From: a virus
Direction: 5' to 3' (one strand)
IMG/VR virus record: IMGVR_UViG_3300005663_000028
Span: 96,001 to 160,000 of that record
DNA: 64,000 nucleotides
The notes under the pieces are model-generated. The model was not told the origin of the DNA. It made no database searches and saw only the letters and a program-made list of their open reading frames with translations. Shown piece after piece: positions 3,013-64,000 of this stretch. Position 1 is the stretch's first letter, and each line of letters opens with the position of its first letter. Made by a program: the position numbers and the translations under genes.

Positions 3013-3583
3013 TCCGGATCAATTTCGGTTTCAAACTCTTAGTCTTCAACCATTGTTGTTTTCTATTAACACCAAGCCGCTCAACAGTTTCGTCAATACA
3101 TGCTCTAATAAAAATTCTGTCTTCTTCGGTCAATTGATTTGATGACAAAATATCGTTGAGCACATTAAATGACTCCAATTCCACTGACGGTTCGTTAAGA
3201 AGTTTATCCAAAAAACTGAGATCAATCAATGACTGTAAGTCCATAAATCTTTTCTGTGAAATTTGGAGTTCGTCGCAAATCTCCAATTCTGTTTTCCCCA
3301 TAGCCAAAAGCATCTCAATCTTAAGTGCTAACCTTTTAGTCCCATGTGGAGCAGAAGCGGCAAACATGGCATCCATAGCAGTATCTCTCATGGTACGAGC
3401 CACCGCAGCAATAGCATACGAAATAAAGTCACGATGTTCGTATTGACCCCCACTGATTTCCGCCAACTTAAGATGCCCTGCTTGAATGTAGTCATCCTTG
3501 TCAGCACAACAACTAGGATAGAGATAGGCAATTTTTGTCGCAAATCTCTCCATAAATACATCAAGAGTCCGCCGACGTTCCAC
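2996..3583 (-). CDS. sigma-70-like transcription factor (region 2-like plus HTH)
   Basis: DDYIQAGHLKL...FISYAIAAVARTMRD resembles sigma region 2; TELEICDELQIS HTH-like segment. Confidence 0.55.
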   Translation of the reverse strand: MERRRTLDVFMERFATKIAYLYPSCCADKDDYIQAGHLKLAEISGGQYEHRDFISYAIAAVARTMRDTAMDAMFAASAPHGTKRLALKIEMLLAMGKTELEICDELQISQKRFMDLQSLIDLSFLDKLLNEPSVELESFNVLNDILSSNQLTEEDRIFIRACIDETVERLGVNRKQQWLKTKSLKPKLIRSGYGD

Positions 3584-23763: not shown

Positions 23764-24288
23764 TTAAACTACCGTCACCACTAATTTTCTAATTGTCTCA
23801 AGTTCTTTCGTTATCAACAGTCGATTGTTGGGCTCCCACCTAACAACTTCTATATCCTGATTTTCTAACATGTCTCTAACAACCGAATTAAGATTATCAA
23901 CCCGAGCATTAGAATACGCTCCTTTTGATGATGTTGTAATCGGTCCATATACTACTCGTTTAATTCCCTTTTGAATGATATGAGCCCAGCAGTGGGTACA
24001 CGGCGGTCCTGTTACATACACAGTAGCCCCATCTAGGTCACCAATAGCATTTAGTATTGCATTTTCTTCTGAGTGTAAAATTGGTGGGTATTTTTCAGGT
24101 CTAGTTTGAGGCATTTTGTCATCATCAACACCCCTTGGGTATCCATTATAACCTTGACCAACAGGACGACCACGTTTATCAACTATTACACATCCACATT
24201 GCGTACTCTCATCTGGACTTCGAACCTTAGCCCAAAGAGCCTGAATCATGAAATAGTCATCAAAACACAATCTACTTCTTAACATCAC
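23764..24288 (-). CDS. dCMP deaminase
   Basis: GYNGYPRG, HSEENAI, PPCTHC zinc motifs. Confidence 0.92.
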   Translation of the reverse strand: MMLRSRLCFDDYFMIQALWAKVRSPDESTQCGCVIVDKRGRPVGQGYNGYPRGVDDDKMPQTRPEKYPPILHSEENAILNAIGDLDGATVYVTGPPCTHCWAHIIQKGIKRVVYGPITTSSKGAYSNARVDNLNSVVRDMLENQDIEVVRWEPNNRLLITKELETIRKLVVTVV

Positions 24289-25327
24289 CTGTCTCCTGTG
24301 GGAGAACTATATCTCTCACTTCGTCTTCTAATTTCTTCAGTTTATCTGGATTCTCAGTCAAAAAATTCGATAACCTAGCAAGCCCCTGAAATTTCGGTGG
24401 ATCGCCGCCATCTGCAAACATCGGAATTGCATACCATGATCCGGCCTTCTCGATTAGTCCAAGGTTCTCTGCTGTCGTAACTATATCCCTGGTAGTGTCT
24501 ATGCCAATTCCATACCTAAGAGGTAATACGCAAGGCAACAGTGGCCTTCCCATCGCAGATGATTGTATTGTTATGTGCATGTCGTGGCCGTCTGGGGCAT
24601 TAGTCTCTGGGTTTTTCTCCCATTGCTTGGTCCAAGTGACCTTTAGCCAAACAGAACAGGCATATTGTATCGCCAACCCACCTTTCTCCATCCACTTTGG
24701 ACCCATGGGTTCCCTGTTGGTCATCATCTGAGATATGAAAATTAAAATTACATCATTAGTATCAACAACTTGCTGAGCCCTTCTGAAAAACGCCGACAAC
24801 AACTTTGCTGGTCCTGCCATATCCTTATTAGAACCAATATCTTCTTCATGTTCTGTCATTGTCGAGAGTGCTGCAATGCTGTCTATTACAACCACGGCCT
24901 TTTTTTGTGTTTTAGCGATGCGTTCTATGATGTTCAAATAGTCTTCTGCCATGAGCGGTTTATCTAGTTGGCTTGGAATTACCTTAAGTTTGGTCGGGTC
25001 AAGTTCCCTAATTGTAGCCAATAGAGATGGGGTACATCGTTTTTCTATATTGATGTAAAATGTGGGACGATTAACCAATTGTGCATTTTTAAGCAATTCA
25101 AGACATAGGGATGTTTTTCCGGACTTTGGCTTGCCTGTTATTAGACAAATTGTTCCATCAGGAATCCCCCCGCTTAATGCCATGTCAAGAGACAATGGGG
25201 TGTGAAGAACATCTCTAGATCGTGGAGCCAGAGCGTCACTCGCTGGAGCAATTATTCCTTCACCATGTATTCTAATAAGAAAAGCATCTAGCGATTCATT
25301 TTCGATCTTCGACTTCTTTTTAGCCAC
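24272..25327 (-). CDS. recA: RecA/UvsX-like recombinase
   Basis: LDMALSGGIP, Walker A GKPKSGKT, VVIDSIAAL, IFISQ, GGLAIQYACS, KAGSWY. Confidence 0.9.
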   Translation of the reverse strand: MAKKKSKIENESLDAFLIRIHGEGIIAPASDALAPRSRDVLHTPLSLDMALSGGIPDGTICLITGKPKSGKTSLCLELLKNAQLVNRPTFYINIEKRCTPSLLATIRELDPTKLKVIPSQLDKPLMAEDYLNIIERIAKTQKKAVVVIDSIAALSTMTEHEEDIGSNKDMAGPAKLLSAFFRRAQQVVDTNDVILIFISQMMTNREPMGPKWMEKGGLAIQYACSVWLKVTWTKQWEKNPETNAPDGHDMHITIQSSAMGRPLLPCVLPLRYGIGIDTTRDIVTTAENLGLIEKAGSWYAIPMFADGGDPPKFQGLARLSNFLTENPDKLKKLEDEVRDIVLPQETGDVKK

Positions 25328-48199: not shown

Positions 48200-50973
48200 T
48201 TAGTACTTCAGTCCTTCGAAGTAAAGGAATCGCTCGTATTCCCCCTTACACCCATCTTGTTTAGCTAATTCGTCGCTCGCATCACAGAGTTCTTTAATAT
48301 CTTGCTTGAATTTAGCTAATTCGATCTGCAATTGGTCGGACGTAAAAACACCCTTTTTCTTTCTTGCTCCAATCCATGTTTTTTTACTTATTTCTACATC
48401 TACGTCCAAAGCAGATATCCACTTAGCTTCGACCCTGATGCCACACTCTTCCCAAATTCGAACGAGATACGTTCTAGGTTTGAGTAGCCGACGAAGTTCT
48501 CTTGCAGCTTCTTTTTTTGTCATGGTTTCTTTCCTAGTTGAAACTCTTGGTATGTAAATTGTTTGTATCCCCCTCCTACCTTTTCTTCTCGTAAATGGTT
48601 TGTACCAAATTTTTTCACAACCACTTCCCCCACAAGTTGCACATATTACTGCGGTTCCTTTTGGCTCAGCACACCCAATATATAAACCAGTTCCATCACA
48701 ATCCCAACATTCTGCTTCTATACTTTCCTGACTCATCGTTTTATTTCTCCAATCACTAGGGACAAGGTTCAGATAAGGGCTCTAATTGTCTCATAATATA
48801 CCCCAAGGTGTCATCCAACAATTTCTATAAGCGGCTTGACGAGCCCTTCTCCTTGCTACGACTAATGACGTACATCTTTTGATTTTACGAACATAAGCCG
48901 CTTGTTCTTTCATGTAAGGCAAGTGCCAATCTATCCATTGTTTGTAATTGAGTTGTCCCAGGCCGAATAAGCATACACCTTCTTCGCAATGACTACTACC
49001 ATCAAAGATTTTCCAGTTAATTTTCATGATCCTTATTTTCCACAAGAGCCAATAATCTTCTAGCCCATAGAACTTTTCCTGCATTTTGTCCCGCTCTGTA
49101 TGCCCGCTGGGGAGAGTATTCTGCATAACCACACACTGTACCATTCTTATCCCTTTTAAGTTGGTCTGACCAACACTGTTTTTCTGCCATCTGCCTAATG
49201 TGTTTAACCAATACAATGAACTCATCTGCCATATCTTTATTACGTGCCCATCCCATTTTTCTTCTCCTTATGAAATTTTTCTGTTTACAGAAAATTTCTT
49301 ATCTAGAGTCTGTGACCCCTACACTTTTAACCCGAACATCTATAATATCAAGATCGTCTGCGTCCATTTCTGGAAAAAAGTCAGCCCCTTCAAGAGCATA
49401 TGTGCCGTTAGCTTCTTCGTCTTCGTGAAGCAAAACATCTAGAACTACTCTATAATGTACTTTTCTCATATTTTTCTCTCTTATTTTGTTAAGCCTCTAG
49501 CAAACTGTTTCGCATCAGAAAAGCAGAAAAAATCTTGATACCACGATTGGCGTTTTGGGGAGATAGACACGGAATAATAGAATCTATTTCCGTATGCATT
49601 ATATTTTCTTATGGCATAACTTCCATTATTCTGGACTAATTTTCCCCTGGAATCGTATTCTCTAATCCAAACTGTTTTACTTCTACCTCTAGTTCGAGAC
49701 ATAAAACAAACCTCCTGGAGAAAACTCCTTAATCTCGAACTCAATCGCTTTCTCACGGTTTTTGTTTTGGTGAAGAATTTTCCCATCTAGAGATAAGACC
49801 TGCCAGACTTGTTCGCCTTCATGAAATTCTACGTTTGATGCTTTGTGGACATTTGTTACTTTACCAATAGCGAACAAGTCGATTTGGTCTGTCCATAAAC
49901 AGTGAACATCACCTTGGTTATCTATGTCTAAAACCACCTTCATCGATCAGACTCCACTTTTATTTCTATGGTTCAATGCAATATACAACTAACGCTACTA
50001 TAGAAAGCATCCAAGCGACCAAAATAACTAGGGTTATTTTCCAACTAAAAATCAATCCTAACAAAGCTAAACAGAGTCCTCCCCCAAAAAGCCAAACACA
50101 AATAACGGAGTCCCAAATTTTCATGAGTTTCTTTTTTATTTTACTTTTCATTTTGTTGTTCCCAAGCGTAGTGTCCCGTTCCGAAAGGCCCCCACCCTGT
50201 TATCCTTGGTGCTGCCTGAAGTGCCGCACCAAGTGTCCAACTATACCAGACACATAACGATAGTAATCCCGTCTAAAAACATACTTGGCCTAATTTTTTC
50301 ATATTATTTTCCCTTAATAGTCCCACATAGGGACAAATCCAAAAACATCGACTAATTCCGCTAATAGTTCTGGACCTTCTAAACAATTTTCATCATTTTG
50401 CATAACAGATTCACCGTTAAAACATTGAGTTTTAATAAAAAATTCCAAAACTTTTTCAAAGACTTTATTTTTTGTTTCTTGATCATCGTGATACATAAGA
50501 TTCAATAGCGATTCTCCCTCAAATGTTCTCATTGTCATTTTTTATCCTTTCTTGTTTGTCCATAGCACTTTCAAGGTCTTTCCCCACCGCTTCCCAATCT
50601 TTGCGAATAGTATCCTCATCAGTCACAGACAGTATTTTTTCCGTTTCTGCGAATGGACGAGGGTTTTCTTTTGGGAAAATACCGATCTGTGACATAGCTT
50701 TCCATAGATTTTTCCAGAACTTTTTAAGGGTCACTTTTTCTTTCCTTCATTAGCTCTTTTTTCAATTTGTCTAATCTCTTCTTGTGAAAGATATTTGTAA
50801 GCAGCCATCCTTTGCTCTTTTGCATATTCTACTAAACTACCACAGCTAGCCCCACCAAAAACACCTCTGACAAAAAGTTGTGTTCTTGCCGACAGATCGT
50901 CTGTATCGTATTTGTCTATAACGAATGTGGTGAATTCAGCTAATGCATAGGCTATTTTATCGACAGACATCAT
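48200..50973 (-). other. cluster of small hypothetical CDS (e.g. 48200-48736 with CxxCxGxG, 48791-49030, 49017-49256, 49299-49469, 49689-49943, 49966-50151, 50314-50538, 50519-50734, 50731-50973)
   Basis: ORF track plus a manually read 56-aa ORF at 49299-49469. Confidence 0.5.
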
Positions 50974-52483
50974 TAATTGTCCCTTTTTGGTTTGTTATAG
51001 TAAAATCGACATTTGTTCGAAATTCATTAATATCAGAACATCCAGCATACGATATTCCCGACCTTAAAGAACCTGCATATCTTTTAAGTAACTTTTCTAA
51101 TGATTCTCCTAGTGGAAGGTATTTTACGCAACCTTCCGGGGCGTCATTACTTACTGAGCCTCTCCATTTTTCTTGTACTAATCTACTGGCCATTCCTGCA
51201 TAGATTTTTTCTCCGTGTTCATTTAACAAGGCGGCACTTTCCGGGCATGAAGCAAAAATCTTACCAGCCATTACACTCGATGAGCCTGCGGCTATTGCCT
51301 TAACAAAGTCTGCTGGTTCCCTAATTCCTCCATCGCTAATTATTGGTAATCCGTAGGTTCTAGAGGCTGTTATACATTTCTGGATGGCTGAAAATTGTTT
51401 CTCCGTTACACCTGCCGTATTTTTGGTTTCACAAACAAATCCTTGTGCTATCCCAACCTTTACGGCCGATGCAAAGTCTGCGCTTTCTGCGAACAAACCT
51501 GGGTTAATTGTATTTCCAACTACGATATGAACGTTTGGTGCAAACTGTTTAATTAGACGGCCAAGTTCTATAACAGGTTCACAATATCCATGCGCTACAT
51601 CAATAAAAATAATATTAGCATTAGCCCGAATGAGCTTCTTGGCTAGATCAAATTGTGAAACACCGATACCTACCGAAACCGCTACCCATCTGTTGTTTTT
51701 ATGTATTTGGTTAGTCCATTTTTCCAACACGTTATCAGAAGAGGCCCTATGGAGAACCCCCATAGCTCCTAATTTTTCTAATAAAATACAAAATTCAGGG
51801 TTGGTTACAGTGCTCATGTTAGAAGCAATTAATGGAATATCTAATTCAACACCTCTTATTATTTCGGATACAATATTTACATTAGACCGTGATTGAACTA
51901 CTGATTTTTTTTGAAGAATACTGACGTCTTCGAATCCGAGAGATATTGGTGTTGTCGACATTTTGATAGAGGGGTTAATAAAATATTCACAAGTACTATG
52001 GTCAAAATGAATAATACCCCGACCGACGAGATCAAAAGCAATTTTTTCCAATTTTGAATGTAATTTTCTATGGTTGGAATTACTTGATACGGCACAGAGG
52101 TTTGTCAATGAGTTATCGTCTTTTCGGCCGTTAATGTGGTGGATTATCCACCCATTATCTATCAAATTAAACCCCGTGGTTTCTTCCATAACTAGATGGT
52201 GTTCCCCAATATAGCGTTTTCGTCTTTCATCCCAAATCATTATGTAATTACCAGGCTTACCGGCCTTGATTTTCCTACCGAATCTGGTTTTTATTTTTTG
52301 GTTGTCCCTGCTTCTGGAGCATGGTCCACACAAATCCTTTCCCCATTTTTCCCTAGAATCTTTGGCTTTTCTCCACTGTGGTTTACTTTCTGTCCCACAA
52401 GAGTCACATATCTTTAATACTAGGTATGTTCTCTTTAATGTTGAAAAGTCGTTTATTGTTTTATTATCAAGTGTTTTGATCAT
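50957..52483 (-). CDS. HNH endonuclease fused in frame to an IMP dehydrogenase / GMP reductase family enzyme
   Basis: N-terminal CxxC pairs, EHHLVME..IHHINGRKDDN..NL (HNH); from residue ~175 SLGFEDV, IPLIASNMSTV, IFIDVAHG, KVGIAQGFVCET, IISDGGI, YAGMAS. Confidence 0.88.
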   Translation of the reverse strand: MIKTLDNKTINDFSTLKRTYLVLKICDSCGTESKPQWRKAKDSREKWGKDLCGPCSRSRDNQKIKTRFGRKIKAGKPGNYIMIWDERRKRYIGEHHLVMEETTGFNLIDNGWIIHHINGRKDDNSLTNLCAVSSNSNHRKLHSKLEKIAFDLVGRGIIHFDHSTCEYFINPSIKMSTTPISLGFEDVSILQKKSVVQSRSNVNIVSEIIRGVELDIPLIASNMSTVTNPEFCILLEKLGAMGVLHRASSDNVLEKWTNQIHKNNRWVAVSVGIGVSQFDLAKKLIRANANIIFIDVAHGYCEPVIELGRLIKQFAPNVHIVVGNTINPGLFAESADFASAVKVGIAQGFVCETKNTAGVTEKQFSAIQKCITASRTYGLPIISDGGIREPADFVKAIAAGSSSVMAGKIFASCPESAALLNEHGEKIYAGMASRLVQEKWRGSVSNDAPEGCVKYLPLGESLEKLLKRYAGSLRSGISYAGCSDINEFRTNVDFTITNQKGTINDVCR

Positions 52484-52596
52484 GTTGTTGCTTCAGCTAG
52501 TCTGATAATTATATTCTGGGTCTTGTTCGAATTCAGAGAAGGTCGTTGCGGGACCAGCAAGATGTCGTTAAAACAAAGATCGTGTTGTTCAGTCAT
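52480..52596 (-). pseudogene. orphaned 38-aa N-terminus of an IMPDH/GMPR gene (MTEQHDLCFNDILLVPQRPSLNSNKTQNIIIRLAEATT)
   Basis: read manually; LCFNDILLVPQ matches the GuaB/GuaC start motif LTFDDVLLVP; TAATG-coupled upstream and ATGA-coupled to the HNH fusion. Confidence 0.8.
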
Positions 52597-60431: not shown

Positions 60432-61091
60432 CTAGTCAATCATTTTCTCTCTGGTTTCGTAGTAGTCGCATTGTGAGAAATGTTTGTATGGAGATTCACC
60501 CAATGGGCACCAATGTATTATTCCGTTTTCGTCGACAAACATATTGTCGTTCATAGCGTTGTCACACATAGCTACGTCTTGATATTTGCTTGGCACGTTG
60601 TTATCATACGCCCTACCAACTAATACAATGTTCAGACCCAAGTCCCCAGCGAATTGCACAAAAATACGATGCTTATGTTTGAATGATTGTTTTAGTTTTT
60701 CAAAAGCTTCTTGTCCGTATCCATCTTTGGAATGAAATTGTGATTGAGATATTCTAATGGTAATATTTTGAGTATCTAAGCTCAAAATAACACGAACAAA
60801 TTCATCAAGGGTTGCTTTTTGTTTTACGAATACACCATTTGTCATTATGCCTCCCTGATAATGGCCTTGAAAGGTGTTTCTCATTAGATCGCCGTAATTC
60901 GGAATTAAAGATACTTCTCCACCCATTACGGATATATTTGAATCCACTCCTTTAGGTAACCATTCATTTAATTGTTGGGACATCTTTTCCGTCATGTGGG
61001 TCTTATTTGATGGGCCAGACCTGAACATGCAATGATCACACGTCTCGTTGCAAAAGTTCGTTAATCTGATCGTTGTTTCGTGTTTGGACAT
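60432..61091 (-). CDS. short radical SAM protein
   Basis: LTNFCNETCDHC (CxxxCxxC), MGGE, MTNG; C-terminal C...C twitch-like segment. Confidence 0.82.
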   Translation of the reverse strand: MSKHETTIRLTNFCNETCDHCMFRSGPSNKTHMTEKMSQQLNEWLPKGVDSNISVMGGEVSLIPNYGDLMRNTFQGHYQGGIMTNGVFVKQKATLDEFVRVILSLDTQNITIRISQSQFHSKDGYGQEAFEKLKQSFKHKHRIFVQFAGDLGLNIVLVGRAYDNNVPSKYQDVAMCDNAMNDNMFVDENGIIHWCPLGESPYKHFSQCDYYETREKMID

Positions 61092-61136
61092 GTAGTTGAC
61101 TCCGCTAACATTGATTATGTTTGTGGTCCAAACACA

Positions 61137-62572
61137 TTAAATCTCGTTCTCATTTGGGTGATCTATGCAAAAGCAAAGTTCCCATTCTCCTACATGGCTG
61201 GTGGTTGTGTTGCTTTGGTTGTCCCATATACCACAATTATCAATAGAGAGGAACATCGGTGACTCCTCTCCCTTGGATTTCATAAGCGACAACAGAGCTT
61301 CGGCAACTTCTTCTTTCGAAAAACAAAATGTCGTCGACGCCCTACACTCACATTTTCGCAACCCGTGCATTTTACTCGTTGGTGAGCATCTACACTCTTT
61401 TGGTCTGTGTGTTTTCTTCATTTTTAACTCTCCAGTTCTTTCCAGTATTTTTTATCGAGATGATCCCTCATTCCGTTTTCTGAAGGATTGTCTCCATAAA
61501 ACCCCCAACACGAATTCAGGTTTGGACCCTTACCGTCGCAATGTTCATAGGGTGGACCCCGTAGGACAAATCTATATACGTCACCTCTAAGATATTGATC
61601 ATATGTCTCAACTTCACCGATTAGGCACTGACGGGTTTTCCTTCTTATTTCTGTTTTAAGGGTGTTCGTTCCGCCGAACGTTGATTCTGCCATTGCTTTA
61701 GTACAAAATATAAAACCGATTTGACCACTGTCCCACCGACAACCGAATGGGGTTGTTTGGATAGCAAGACCAGAGTGGTTCATCAGGTAAAGGGGTAGGA
61801 TTACCGCAACGTCATTAGACGCTTCGATTACATTTTCCATTTCGTCCCATGAATTATAATCATCATGTTTCAATTCGTGTTCGTCACCAAGATTGAGATT
61901 TTTGTGAAAACAAACCATTTGCCCAATATTATCCCAACTTCTTGGGGATTCGACGTCTTCGTCTGGGTGGATTTCTAACGTGCAGCCGTCTTTGAGTTTT
62001 ATTGTTTTAATCATCATTTTTAGCTCGCCCCTTCCTTCTTTTGCTCTAGGAACTTTTCCAATCGATTTTGAAACTGTTCAACATACATTTTAAGTTCGCC
62101 TAGATCACACTCAAATGACACGGTAATAGATGAACACATGTCCAAATAGACTTCTTCAACGGAGGCTATGTCCGGAGGTATATTGAGATCGAATAATCCT
62201 TCAGATAACACATTTGTGTTTCTGTATCCTTTTACTTGTCCTGCATATGCGTGCCCACCGTCGTACCTTTCTGTTACCTCCTCATCAAATTGTCTGTCGG
62301 ACGTCCAATCTGGTAAACCAAATATCACCTGAACGCATTCAATACTACTTTGGGCCACGATTCCATTCCTTCCATTTTTCGATAAGTGCCATCGCCTCTT
62401 TGTCAGAAAGCCATTGTTTAGACACTCCGTTTTCTGCGGCGAAGTAGAACTGTTTGCCTGTTGTGGATTGTTCGTTTACGGAGACATGGATTATATGGTT
62501 GGTTCTCATACACGGATAATATGGATACCCAAGCCCTTCATCTCTGGTCATAGTAGCGATAATCCACTTCAT
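61137..62572 (-). other. four hypothetical CDS (61137-61421, 61424-62017, 62020-62358, 62345-62572)
   Basis: 61424-62017 carries SPRSWDNIG...LYLMNHSG...WDSGQIGFI, a pattern I recall from mobile elements; function unknown. Confidence 0.55.
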
Positions 62573-62575
62573 ATT

Positions 62576-63235
62576 CTACTTCGCTCCCATTTCATTTGTA
62601 AGCAAATTCAAATCGATTTCTTTATCAAGCTCGCAACCTCTCAGCCACTTGGCGAATTGTGCAACTCTTAATCCCGCTGAAACGTTTGCGCAGTAAATGG
62701 TTGTCTTAGCCGTACACGACCCATTGTAAGTTTCTGCTTGTGGGAAAAATGTTGTGCCGTAGTGCTCTCGTGAAGTGTCATCATAGACGATGAATATTCT
62801 CATATATTCAGCGCTCATCCTGGCATCTATAAATAAGTCTGCTCGTTCTTTTACGGTTTCGAAAATTGATTTTCTGGTGGAAATTTTATCTACACAACAA
62901 AATAGTACACCCCCAGTGAAGTCCATTGATCGGAACTTACGGTTGACGGTAGTTATTTCAATTGCGGGGTTGATAGCAGCACAAATATCCTTGACTGCAT
63001 CTACTTTGAATTTTCCGAGATCGGCTTCGTGATATCCTTGACAAGCAAGATTCTCTACAGAAACTAAATCGAAGTCGATAAGCCGTAGTCGTGGCACTCC
63101 AATAGCTGCCAGTTGAAGTGCCACTTGTCTTCCTCCTGCACCGACACCAACTATTGTGGCTCTAATAGCGGATAGTTTATCTGGTGGTATTAATTCTTTT
63201 TGTCTGATGTCTCTATTTTTTAGCAGATTTTCCAT
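62576..63235 (-). CDS. ThiF/MoeB/E1-like adenylyltransferase
   Basis: IVGVGAGG, LIDFDLVSVENL..Q, KVDA, CCVD, IDARM, GSC; AAGGAG RBS. Confidence 0.88.
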   Translation of the reverse strand: MENLLKNRDIRQKELIPPDKLSAIRATIVGVGAGGRQVALQLAAIGVPRLRLIDFDLVSVENLACQGYHEADLGKFKVDAVKDICAAINPAIEITTVNRKFRSMDFTGGVLFCCVDKISTRKSIFETVKERADLFIDARMSAEYMRIFIVYDDTSREHYGTTFFPQAETYNGSCTAKTTIYCANVSAGLRVAQFAKWLRGCELDKEIDLNLLTNEMGAK

Positions 63236-63279
63236 GGTTTTCTACTCCTTTTGTGTATAATAAGGTTGGAGGAAAGGTT

Positions 63280-63918
63280 ATGAAATATTCGAAAGCCCAA
63301 CAAAGTCGCGTAGATAAGGGGTTGTGCGCTAAATGTGGGGAGCCCACTGATCATACTGTTTATTGTTCCAAATGTACTAGAGTGTGTACTGAATACAATA
63401 GACAGAGAAGGGCCAAGCGACGAGAGTTGGGAATATGTTATACGTGCGGAAACAGTACGGAAAATAATCGTGCGTATTGTCCAGAGTGTCTAAAAAAGGC
63501 TCGTAAATATAGAACTGCTTACAAATTGAAGGCTCCATACGGTGTTTGTGTTATTTGTCGTGTGGAATCATGCCTGCCATCATTAGTAGACGCAACATTA
63601 TATCGGCGAATTTGTCAGAACTGTTATCTTAAAAACGCGTCCTGTTCACAATTAGGGTCGGTTGAATACTGGAAGCAATTGCTTTGTAAACTAGAAGCCC
63701 AACAATTTCGTTGTGTATATTCTGGAGATGAACTTATATTGGGAGTTAACGATTCCATGGATCATATTTATCCAAAATCTAGGTATCCTGACAAAGCCCT
63801 AGACCCATCTAATATCCAATGGGTTACTCGCACAGTCAATATGGCTAAGGGGTGTTTAGATCATGATGAGTTTTTAACCCTAATTCGCCGTATCAACAAC
63901 CGTTTTCCAAAAGACTAA
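63280..63918 (+). mobile_element. free-standing HNH endonuclease with N-terminal zinc-finger repeats, antisense to flanking genes
   Basis: three CxxC...CxxC units; RCVYSG..MDHIYP...NIQWV...N.AKG; own TATAAT (63256-63261) and GGAGG RBS before ATG at 63280. Confidence 0.82.
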
Positions 63919-63983
63919 TCCTCTTCTGTGTTCATGATTAGTTTTCGTTGACGAATATCCCTATCTTCAATAACTGAAGTCAT
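63915..63983 (-). pseudogene. orphaned 22-aa N-terminus of the ThiF gene (MTSVIEDRDIRQRKLIMNTEED)
   Basis: read manually; GGAG RBS; RDIRQ..LI matches the ThiF start MENLLKNRDIRQKELI; stops at the HNH boundary. Confidence 0.8.
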
Positions 63984-64000
63984 ACTTAATCTCCATAAAA

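Follow-up and report, generated by a model that had tools for sequence, protein, structure and literature searches.

The window analysed here is a stretch of 64,000 nucleotides (nt) of viral DNA, positions 96001-160000 of the complete 179,553-bp virus record IMGVR_UViG_3300005663_000028, and this report concerns an HNH endonuclease gene that lies near the end of the window, beside the start of a gene for a ThiF/E1-like protein (thiF). Read on the minus strand, the locus contains in order a JAB/MPN gene, an orphan open reading frame (ORF) of 58 amino acids (aa), a mini-ORF, the HNH gene in antisense orientation, a 44-nt spacer and thiF. The initial annotation, made by a model from the sequence, had described a mini-ORF, an antisense HNH gene, a new ribosome-binding site (RBS) and a full-length ThiF, and this layout is borne out by the ORFs and their coordinates. 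The parts of the locus are as follows; numbers prefixed with L, P or G are our labels.

62576..63235, minus strand: intact ThiF/E1-like adenylyltransferase gene (PF00899), 219 aa, of mosaic origin.
62994..63235, minus strand: 5' tract of thiF, donor-derived (co-converted); this origin is certain over codons 1-16, strongly supported as far as nt ~120 (63116) and possible as far as nt ~242.
63236..63279: divergent spacer of 44 nt between the HNH start and the thiF start, with both RBSs and a T(T/C)ATACAC box (63253-63260).
63280..63918, plus strand: free-standing HNH endonuclease gene, 212 aa from the ATG at 63280, with N-terminal CxxC zinc-ribbon repeats.
63983-63915, minus strand: mini-ORF of 22 codons, MTSVIED-RDIRQ-RKLI-MNTEED-stop.
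63948..63983, minus strand: part 1 of the scar, the original thiF start of the recipient (codons 1-12, MTSVIED-RDIRQ), with the original RBS still ahead of it.
63936..63947, minus strand: part 2 of the scar, the junction patch (codons 13-16, RKLI).
63915..63935, minus strand: part 3 of the scar, MNTEED-stop, most likely the final codons of the donor JAB gene.
63986..64000, continuing to 64162 (L001 3087-3263), minus strand: orphan ORF of 58 aa, its 3' end within the window, which holds the old thiF RBS.
L001 3260-4183, minus strand, upstream of the 58-aa ORF: JAB/MPN gene, 307 aa (PF14464, E 1.6e-5).

The mini-ORF opens as TAA-GT-ATG, with a GGAG in the last codons of the 58-aa ORF, and its TAG overlaps the TAA stop of the HNH gene. 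The plus-strand ORF was called mechanically as 63253-63918 from a GTG at 63253, whereas the ATG at 63280 is the likely real start. The present ThiF begins MENLLKN-RDIRQ, and its AGGAG lies within the 44-nt spacer. The start of the 58-aa ORF overlaps the JAB stop, and its product matched only itself among 5.8 billion proteins; because relatives have JAB abutting thiF, this ORF too is an insertion specific to the window lineage.

Both proteins at the locus carry the hallmarks of their families. The thiF product matches PF00899 with 85 bits against a cut-off of 28 (E 4e-24), retains the VGVGAGG nucleotide loop (GxGxxG) and 45 invariant columns, and is full length, with about 100 homologues of the same length. 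Since it scores lower than the NCBIfam equivalog models require of a true ThiF or MoeB, we take it to be an E1-like paralogue and not the thiamine enzyme; its more likely role is that of the E1-like enzyme in a ubiquitin-like conjugation module. The HNH ORF matched phrog_1035 (2.4e-11) and phrog_144 (7.9e-6), PHROG families of endonuclease VII and HNH proteins, gave no Pfam HNH match at E <= 0.01, and in NCBIfam yielded weak Cas9 matches only. The motif DS-x-DH-I-x-PKS ... SN-IQWVTR-x-VN is invariant in 10 family members, and the window protein retains all family-invariant residues, including D170, H171, N187 and N196, with the D-H...N...N motif aligning with Cas9 HNH domains (E 0.0065). In the AlphaFold2 model, the predicted local distance difference test score (pLDDT) is below 50 over residues 152-190, the catalytic part.

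The origin of the mini-ORF was addressed with a profile of the ThiF N-terminus (16 columns built from 114 homologues, with the window excluded), which was searched against 8302 six-frame segments of the 179.5-kb genome. The mini-ORF ranked first genome-wide (26.5 bits, E 1.4e-6) and the real thiF start second (26.1 bits), while the third match reached only E 0.15. Of more than 45 related loci compared, only that of the window has the RDIRQ stretch twice. The nearest ThiF homologues (74-78% identity) begin M-[ST]-[TS]-[VI]-I-E-[DN], as the mini-ORF does, and the MENLL-type start is found in more distant homologues. Across 100 homologues, the likeness of the N-terminus to the mini-ORF rises with the likeness of the protein to the window's ThiF body (Spearman 0.44-0.51, p <= 4e-6), whereas the first seven residues of the present start give a rho of -0.02, and from these correlations it follows that the scar belongs with the ThiF body and the present start does not. 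To judge from the profile match and from its tracking of the ThiF body clade, the mini-ORF is the displaced old start of thiF, as the initial annotation had supposed. The latter had also predicted that relatives lacking the HNH gene would have the old type of start joined directly to the ThiF body, and indeed L003/L004/L010, L057 and the contigs of P0002 and P0008 have an MSTVIE-type start fused to it, right after JAB.

The present thiF is itself a mosaic of two allele lineages. At two related loci, L005, which has the HNH gene, and L015, which lacks it, the thiF genes are 52-63% identical over nt 1-180 and 92-97% identical over nt 391-660, and identity upstream stays at about 88% right to the insertion point. 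This gradient shows that the HNH gene travels as a unit with approximately 200 nt of the thiF 5' end, and identity that rises with distance from the HNH gene is the classic signature of endonuclease-driven co-conversion. For the window, we compared informative DNA sites with an A clade (L003, L009, L057) and an HNH-linked clade (L005, L008, L058). The ratio of A-like to HNH-clade-like sites is 5:29 in nt 1-120, 12:10 in nt 121-242 and 49:17 in nt 243-660, a change whose maximum chi-square of 29.5 was equalled in none of 5000 permutations, and control genes of the A clade are A-like in nt 1-120. The first seven codons of thiF and the spacer are approximately 80% identical to those of L005, L008 and L058, whereas residues 83-219 of the ThiF body are 77-83% identical to the MSTVIE-type clade, and in the C-terminal ThiF tree the window lies outside the clade (94/92) that contains all other HNH-linked alleles. 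Estimates of the breakpoint disagreed at first (aa 5-16 at the protein level, nt 242 in the first DNA analysis), and better references placed it at nt 114-242. Judged by these sites, the imported tract extends well beyond the 16 duplicated codons, to about nt 120-240. The MENLL-type start and the 5' tract resemble HNH-adjacent alleles, in agreement with the earlier proposal that the present start and its RBS arrived together with the HNH gene. As a separate observation, the thiF genes of L005 and L050 are also mosaic relative to one another, and the 5' third of thiF is a recombination hot zone.

The site occupied by the HNH gene is recurrent. HNH homologues with 47-75% identity, all antisense between JAB and thiF, are present in L005/L006, L007, L008, L049, L050, L058 and L059, so that nine loci including the window carry the gene at this site, and it is missing there from more than 15 related loci (L002, L003, L009, L012-L024 and L057). 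None of the other eight has a duplicated thiF start; in each, the HNH gene sits cleanly in the JAB/thiF spacer, with the stops of JAB and the HNH gene overlapping in L007 and L049. An alignment of eight HNH-bearing loci reveals a common 44-nt spacer layout and an invariant T(T/C)ATACAC box, whereas in HNH-less relatives the JAB stop overlaps or abuts the thiF start. This box is not enriched as a general phage promoter would be (4 copies in 64 kb against 2 expected), and a scan for sigma-70 promoters and terminators returned nothing above shuffled sequences. Presence of the HNH gene is polymorphic even inside one tight thiF clade, in which L005 and L050 have it and L015 does not. Its usual home is the JAB/thiF boundary, antisense to both genes, in uncultured phages of roughly 130-180 kb, and it is best read as a free-standing homing endonuclease gene. 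A scan of viral contigs with the single HNH sequence found none of these homologues, and alignment-based scans were needed to recover them; a DNA search with the region found no match among 50,697 phage records.

An HNH paralogue (32-42% identity) lies antisense directly upstream of JAB in L003/L004/L010 (1349-1942), L017 (1432-2145), L019 (1784-2410) and L024 (815-1408), and these relatives have no HNH gene at the JAB/thiF site. As the paralogue sits upstream of JAB, the HNH family occupies at least two spacers of one operon.

The left joint of the insertion lies inside the mini-ORF, whose last codons (RKLI-MNTEED-stop) are not a continuation of thiF. They resemble the JAB C-termini of relatives, which read A-[DN]-E-R-[EK]-L-[AIV]-M-x-E-E or similar, and the overlap of the mini-ORF TAG with the HNH stop has the same geometry as the JAB stop in L007 and L049. 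In a search with a JAB-tail profile of 9 columns, the tail of the mini-ORF ranked first of the 8302 segments, although weakly (E 0.23). MNTEED-stop is most likely the end of the donor JAB gene. The RKLI patch between the two portions can be read both as thiF (Q-R-E-L-I) and as a JAB tail (E-R-E/K-L-I/A), and the joint would have formed by microhomology at this (Q/E)-R-(E/K)-L-I patch.

We consider it likely that a free-standing homing endonuclease gene entered the locus through repair of a double-strand break, in which the thiF side was joined by homologous recombination and the other side by microhomology. The ancestor would have had JAB, the 58-aa ORF and a thiF beginning MTSVIED. In a mixed infection with an HNH-carrying phage, this thiF would have been broken within its first ~250 nt, presumably by the HNH enzyme, and transfer would have run from the HNH carrier to the ancestor. 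On the thiF side, homologous recombination would have copied at least 48 nt, and probably 120-240 nt, from the 5' part of the donor thiF, and the same repair would have brought in the spacer of 44 nt and its RBS, together with the HNH gene and the final codons of the donor JAB. On the upstream side, the orphan 58-aa ORF and JAB genes less than 50% identical would have left no homology to use, and for this reason the resected end, holding thiF codons 1-16, would have been joined to the donor JAB tail at the short common patch. The predicted product is the present order, in which the old start runs into a JAB tail (the mini-ORF) and is followed by the HNH gene and a working mosaic thiF. The end of the scar would mark where resection stopped and joining occurred, which is not necessarily the cut site. 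If the enzyme is active, the scar that it left in place must be immune, and its recognition site could therefore not lie wholly within thiF nt 1-40.

Several observations weigh against this account or blur it. The control genes also show some heterogeneity along thiF, so the breakpoint is soft within nt 114-242. The protein tree of ThiF residues 1-82 did not resolve the position of the window, and the approximately unbiased (AU) test did not reject a placement with the A clade there (p 0.44), so that the mosaic rests on the DNA sites and the first seven codons. Reading the last 6-10 codons as a JAB tail has weak statistical backing, at the E value given above, and the idea was formed after the data had been seen. 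The searches found neither a donor nor an empty-site relative that is near-identical, the closest ThiF being 78% and the closest HNH protein 75% identical, and consequently the junctions cannot be placed to the base. Finally, in a sequence comparison for a candidate immunity site, no base in thiF nt 1-84 separated alleles with the HNH gene from those without it.

The alternative that survives best, which we nevertheless judge to be unlikely, was the one favored by the initial annotation: an element built to insert in the coding 5' end of thiF that carries a selected, recoded, cleavage-resistant N-terminus and RBS of its own, leaving the scar as a regular by-product. The architecture fits such an element, the HNH gene does move in company with the 5' tract of thiF, fungal mitochondrial mobile ORFs do carry replacement gene ends (PMC3630166), and a second similar arrangement exists in the window, where a 38-aa orphan IMPDH-like start precedes an HNH_3-IMPDH fusion. 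A dedicated invasion of the coding 5' end is contradicted by the eight other HNH loci, which are scarless and have the gene at the JAB/thiF boundary, and a purpose-made start by the finding that the MENLL-type start is a natural allele of HNH-bearing phages, imported within a tract far longer than the 16 duplicated codons. The evidence for recoding had been that six of the seven residues shared by the two RDIRQ-type stretches are encoded by different codons; this table is correct, but the difference is not special. Among 135 pairs of thiF alleles from different phages, a mean of 58% of same-residue codons differ and 7% of the pairs reach the 6/7 of the window, and the scar itself differs from the HNH-less L003 allele at 7 of 8 codons. 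Against this background, the codon differences are ordinary divergence of the donor and recipient lineages. Moreover, the scar has 12 consecutive bases of the RDIRQ stretch in common with the alleles of two HNH-bearing loci (L007 and L059), and no base is diagnostic of alleles that carry the HNH gene.

It is also quite improbable, in our estimation, that the locus arose by general illegitimate or homeologous recombination between co-infecting phages with the HNH gene as a mere passenger. Phage genomes are mosaic in general, and thiF alleles are mosaic in many pairs, such as L005 compared with L050, and in L002. However, the divergent tract always abuts the HNH gene, identity climbs with distance from it, and its presence or absence varies even within the tight thiF clade described above. 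Very unlikely is a retained function for the mini-ORF, as a leader peptide or in coupling ribosomes from the upstream genes: its RBS and start codon are retained and it is tightly coupled to the ORF upstream, but it is missing from every other locus, with or without the HNH gene, and its halves derive from two different genes. Equally implausible are a chimera assembled from two co-occurring strains and a local tandem duplication that then drifted, for although the record is a metagenome assembly, the common patch at the joint (at most ~12-15 nt) is too short to have caused a k-mer mis-join, records of identical ThiF, HNH and 58-aa proteins exist from 3 contigs, and the two copies of the start come from different allele clades, unlike what a local duplication would produce.

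The preferred account, entry of a homing endonuclease gene by one-sided repair, has precedents among known systems. The review PMC2988022, citing Parker, Belisle and Belfort (1999), presents one-sided homing with microhomology junctions and long resection as experimentally established in phage T4. As with T4 SegF, SegG, SegB and MobE (PMC2988022), the endonuclease gene lies in a spacer beside a conserved gene and is sporadic among relatives, and as with the T4 free-standing endonucleases, donor flanks are co-converted over a few hundred bases and, where one side lacks homology, joints form by microhomology once the end has been resected. The window differs from the T4 systems in that its enzyme is an unrelated zinc-ribbon HNH protein, its target is a JAB/E1 module in uncultured large phages, and the outcome of the one-sided event survives in nature in the form of a scar that is translated; no description of such a scar in a phage was found in open-access literature text. 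In phage Aeh1, nrdA is split by mobE (PMC2988022), which is likewise a homing endonuclease gene of the HNH family, free-standing and inside the bounds of a conserved gene that stays functional, although nrdA works there as two separate halves and nothing is duplicated, whereas the window has a whole thiF and a dead 5' fragment.

According to the initial annotation, this mode of invasion is not known to have been described for free-standing endonuclease genes, yet mobile endonuclease ORFs (mORFs) of fungal mitochondria produce its mirror image at the 3' ends of genes. These mORFs carry foreign gene C-termini in Allomyces macrogynus (atp6) and Glomus (atp6, atp9, cox2 and nad3) (PMC3630166). In both cases the endonuclease gene brings a foreign replacement end, the native end is kept nearby as a duplicated remnant, and the native remnant groups with close relatives while the inserted end does not; in both, too, the copies differ mostly at synonymous sites (64-81% nt identity in the fungal cases; PMC3630166). 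They differ from the window in affecting 3' ends and in encoding LAGLIDADG or GIY-YIG enzymes that are usually fused in frame, whereas the window has a replaced 5' end and an antisense HNH gene, and the HNH element leaves no remnant in most genomes, as the eight other loci attest.

A second, independent scar of the same kind is probably present at the IMPDH/HNH_3 locus, to judge from the arrangement of its ORFs.

50957-52596, minus strand: IMPDH/HNH_3 locus, with a 38-aa ORF at 52596-52480 (containing F-N-D-I-L-L-V-P) followed by a 508-aa ORF.

The 508-aa ORF encodes an in-frame fusion of an HNH_3 domain (aa 95-139) with an IMPDH/GMP-reductase domain that is complete (aa 182-501). The 38-aa orphan matches the present start of the IMPDH gene weakly in a pairwise comparison (E 0.058), in register. 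In L055, a related 181-kb phage, the HNH_3-IMPDH fusion (81% identity) is present without the 38-aa orphan, and in L056, which has neither HNH nor orphan, the IMPDH/GMP-reductase begins directly. A generic scan for flank duplications at all HNH genes of the genome was insensitive, placing the known thiF case at the null mean, and says nothing of the others.

Some further features of the genome and its relatives were recorded. The phage operon around thiF (L001 3260-4601 and window 60432-63235) comprises the JAB/MPN gene, an upstream gene for a Cys-rich CxxC-repeat protein and a downstream gene for a radical-SAM protein. Three further HNH or HNH_3 ORFs were recognized by Pfam in other parts of the genome (G000 24228-24875, 65933-66574 and 81253-82017). 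In L009, the JAB gene has an in-frame stop (~3440-3500) nine codons ahead of a normal-looking tail (ERDLAMMEE-stop), which may reflect either an error in sequencing or a nonsense mutation of recent date, and thiF appears to begin at a GTG.

The locus is the natural footprint of a known process and not a new class of mobile element. Two HNH families with scars in one genome, at thiF and probably at the IMPDH/GMP-reductase gene, hint that the process is recurrent. We regard as doubtful, but put forward tentatively, the broader idea that scar-leaving one-sided homing is a regular route between phages that have a common target and different upstream genes, in which the ~200-nt start with its RBS and TATACAC box would serve as a portable, immunity-conferring 5' end; if true, these elements would be the phage 5'-end counterpart of the fungal mitochondrial mORFs, and scars could be searched for as a guide to the targets of endonucleases and to recent invasions. 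For annotation, the lesson is that a short orphan ORF beside an endonuclease gene can be a gene end that has been displaced, and that trees can be led astray by the 5' part of such a target gene. It offers a readable record of a homing endonuclease gene entering a diverged genome, with the old start, the imported start, what is most likely an imported JAB tail and the mosaic target all still in place, and it supports the occurrence in wild phages of one-sided illegitimate repair, so far mainly a laboratory finding in T4, by which such elements would cross synteny boundaries.

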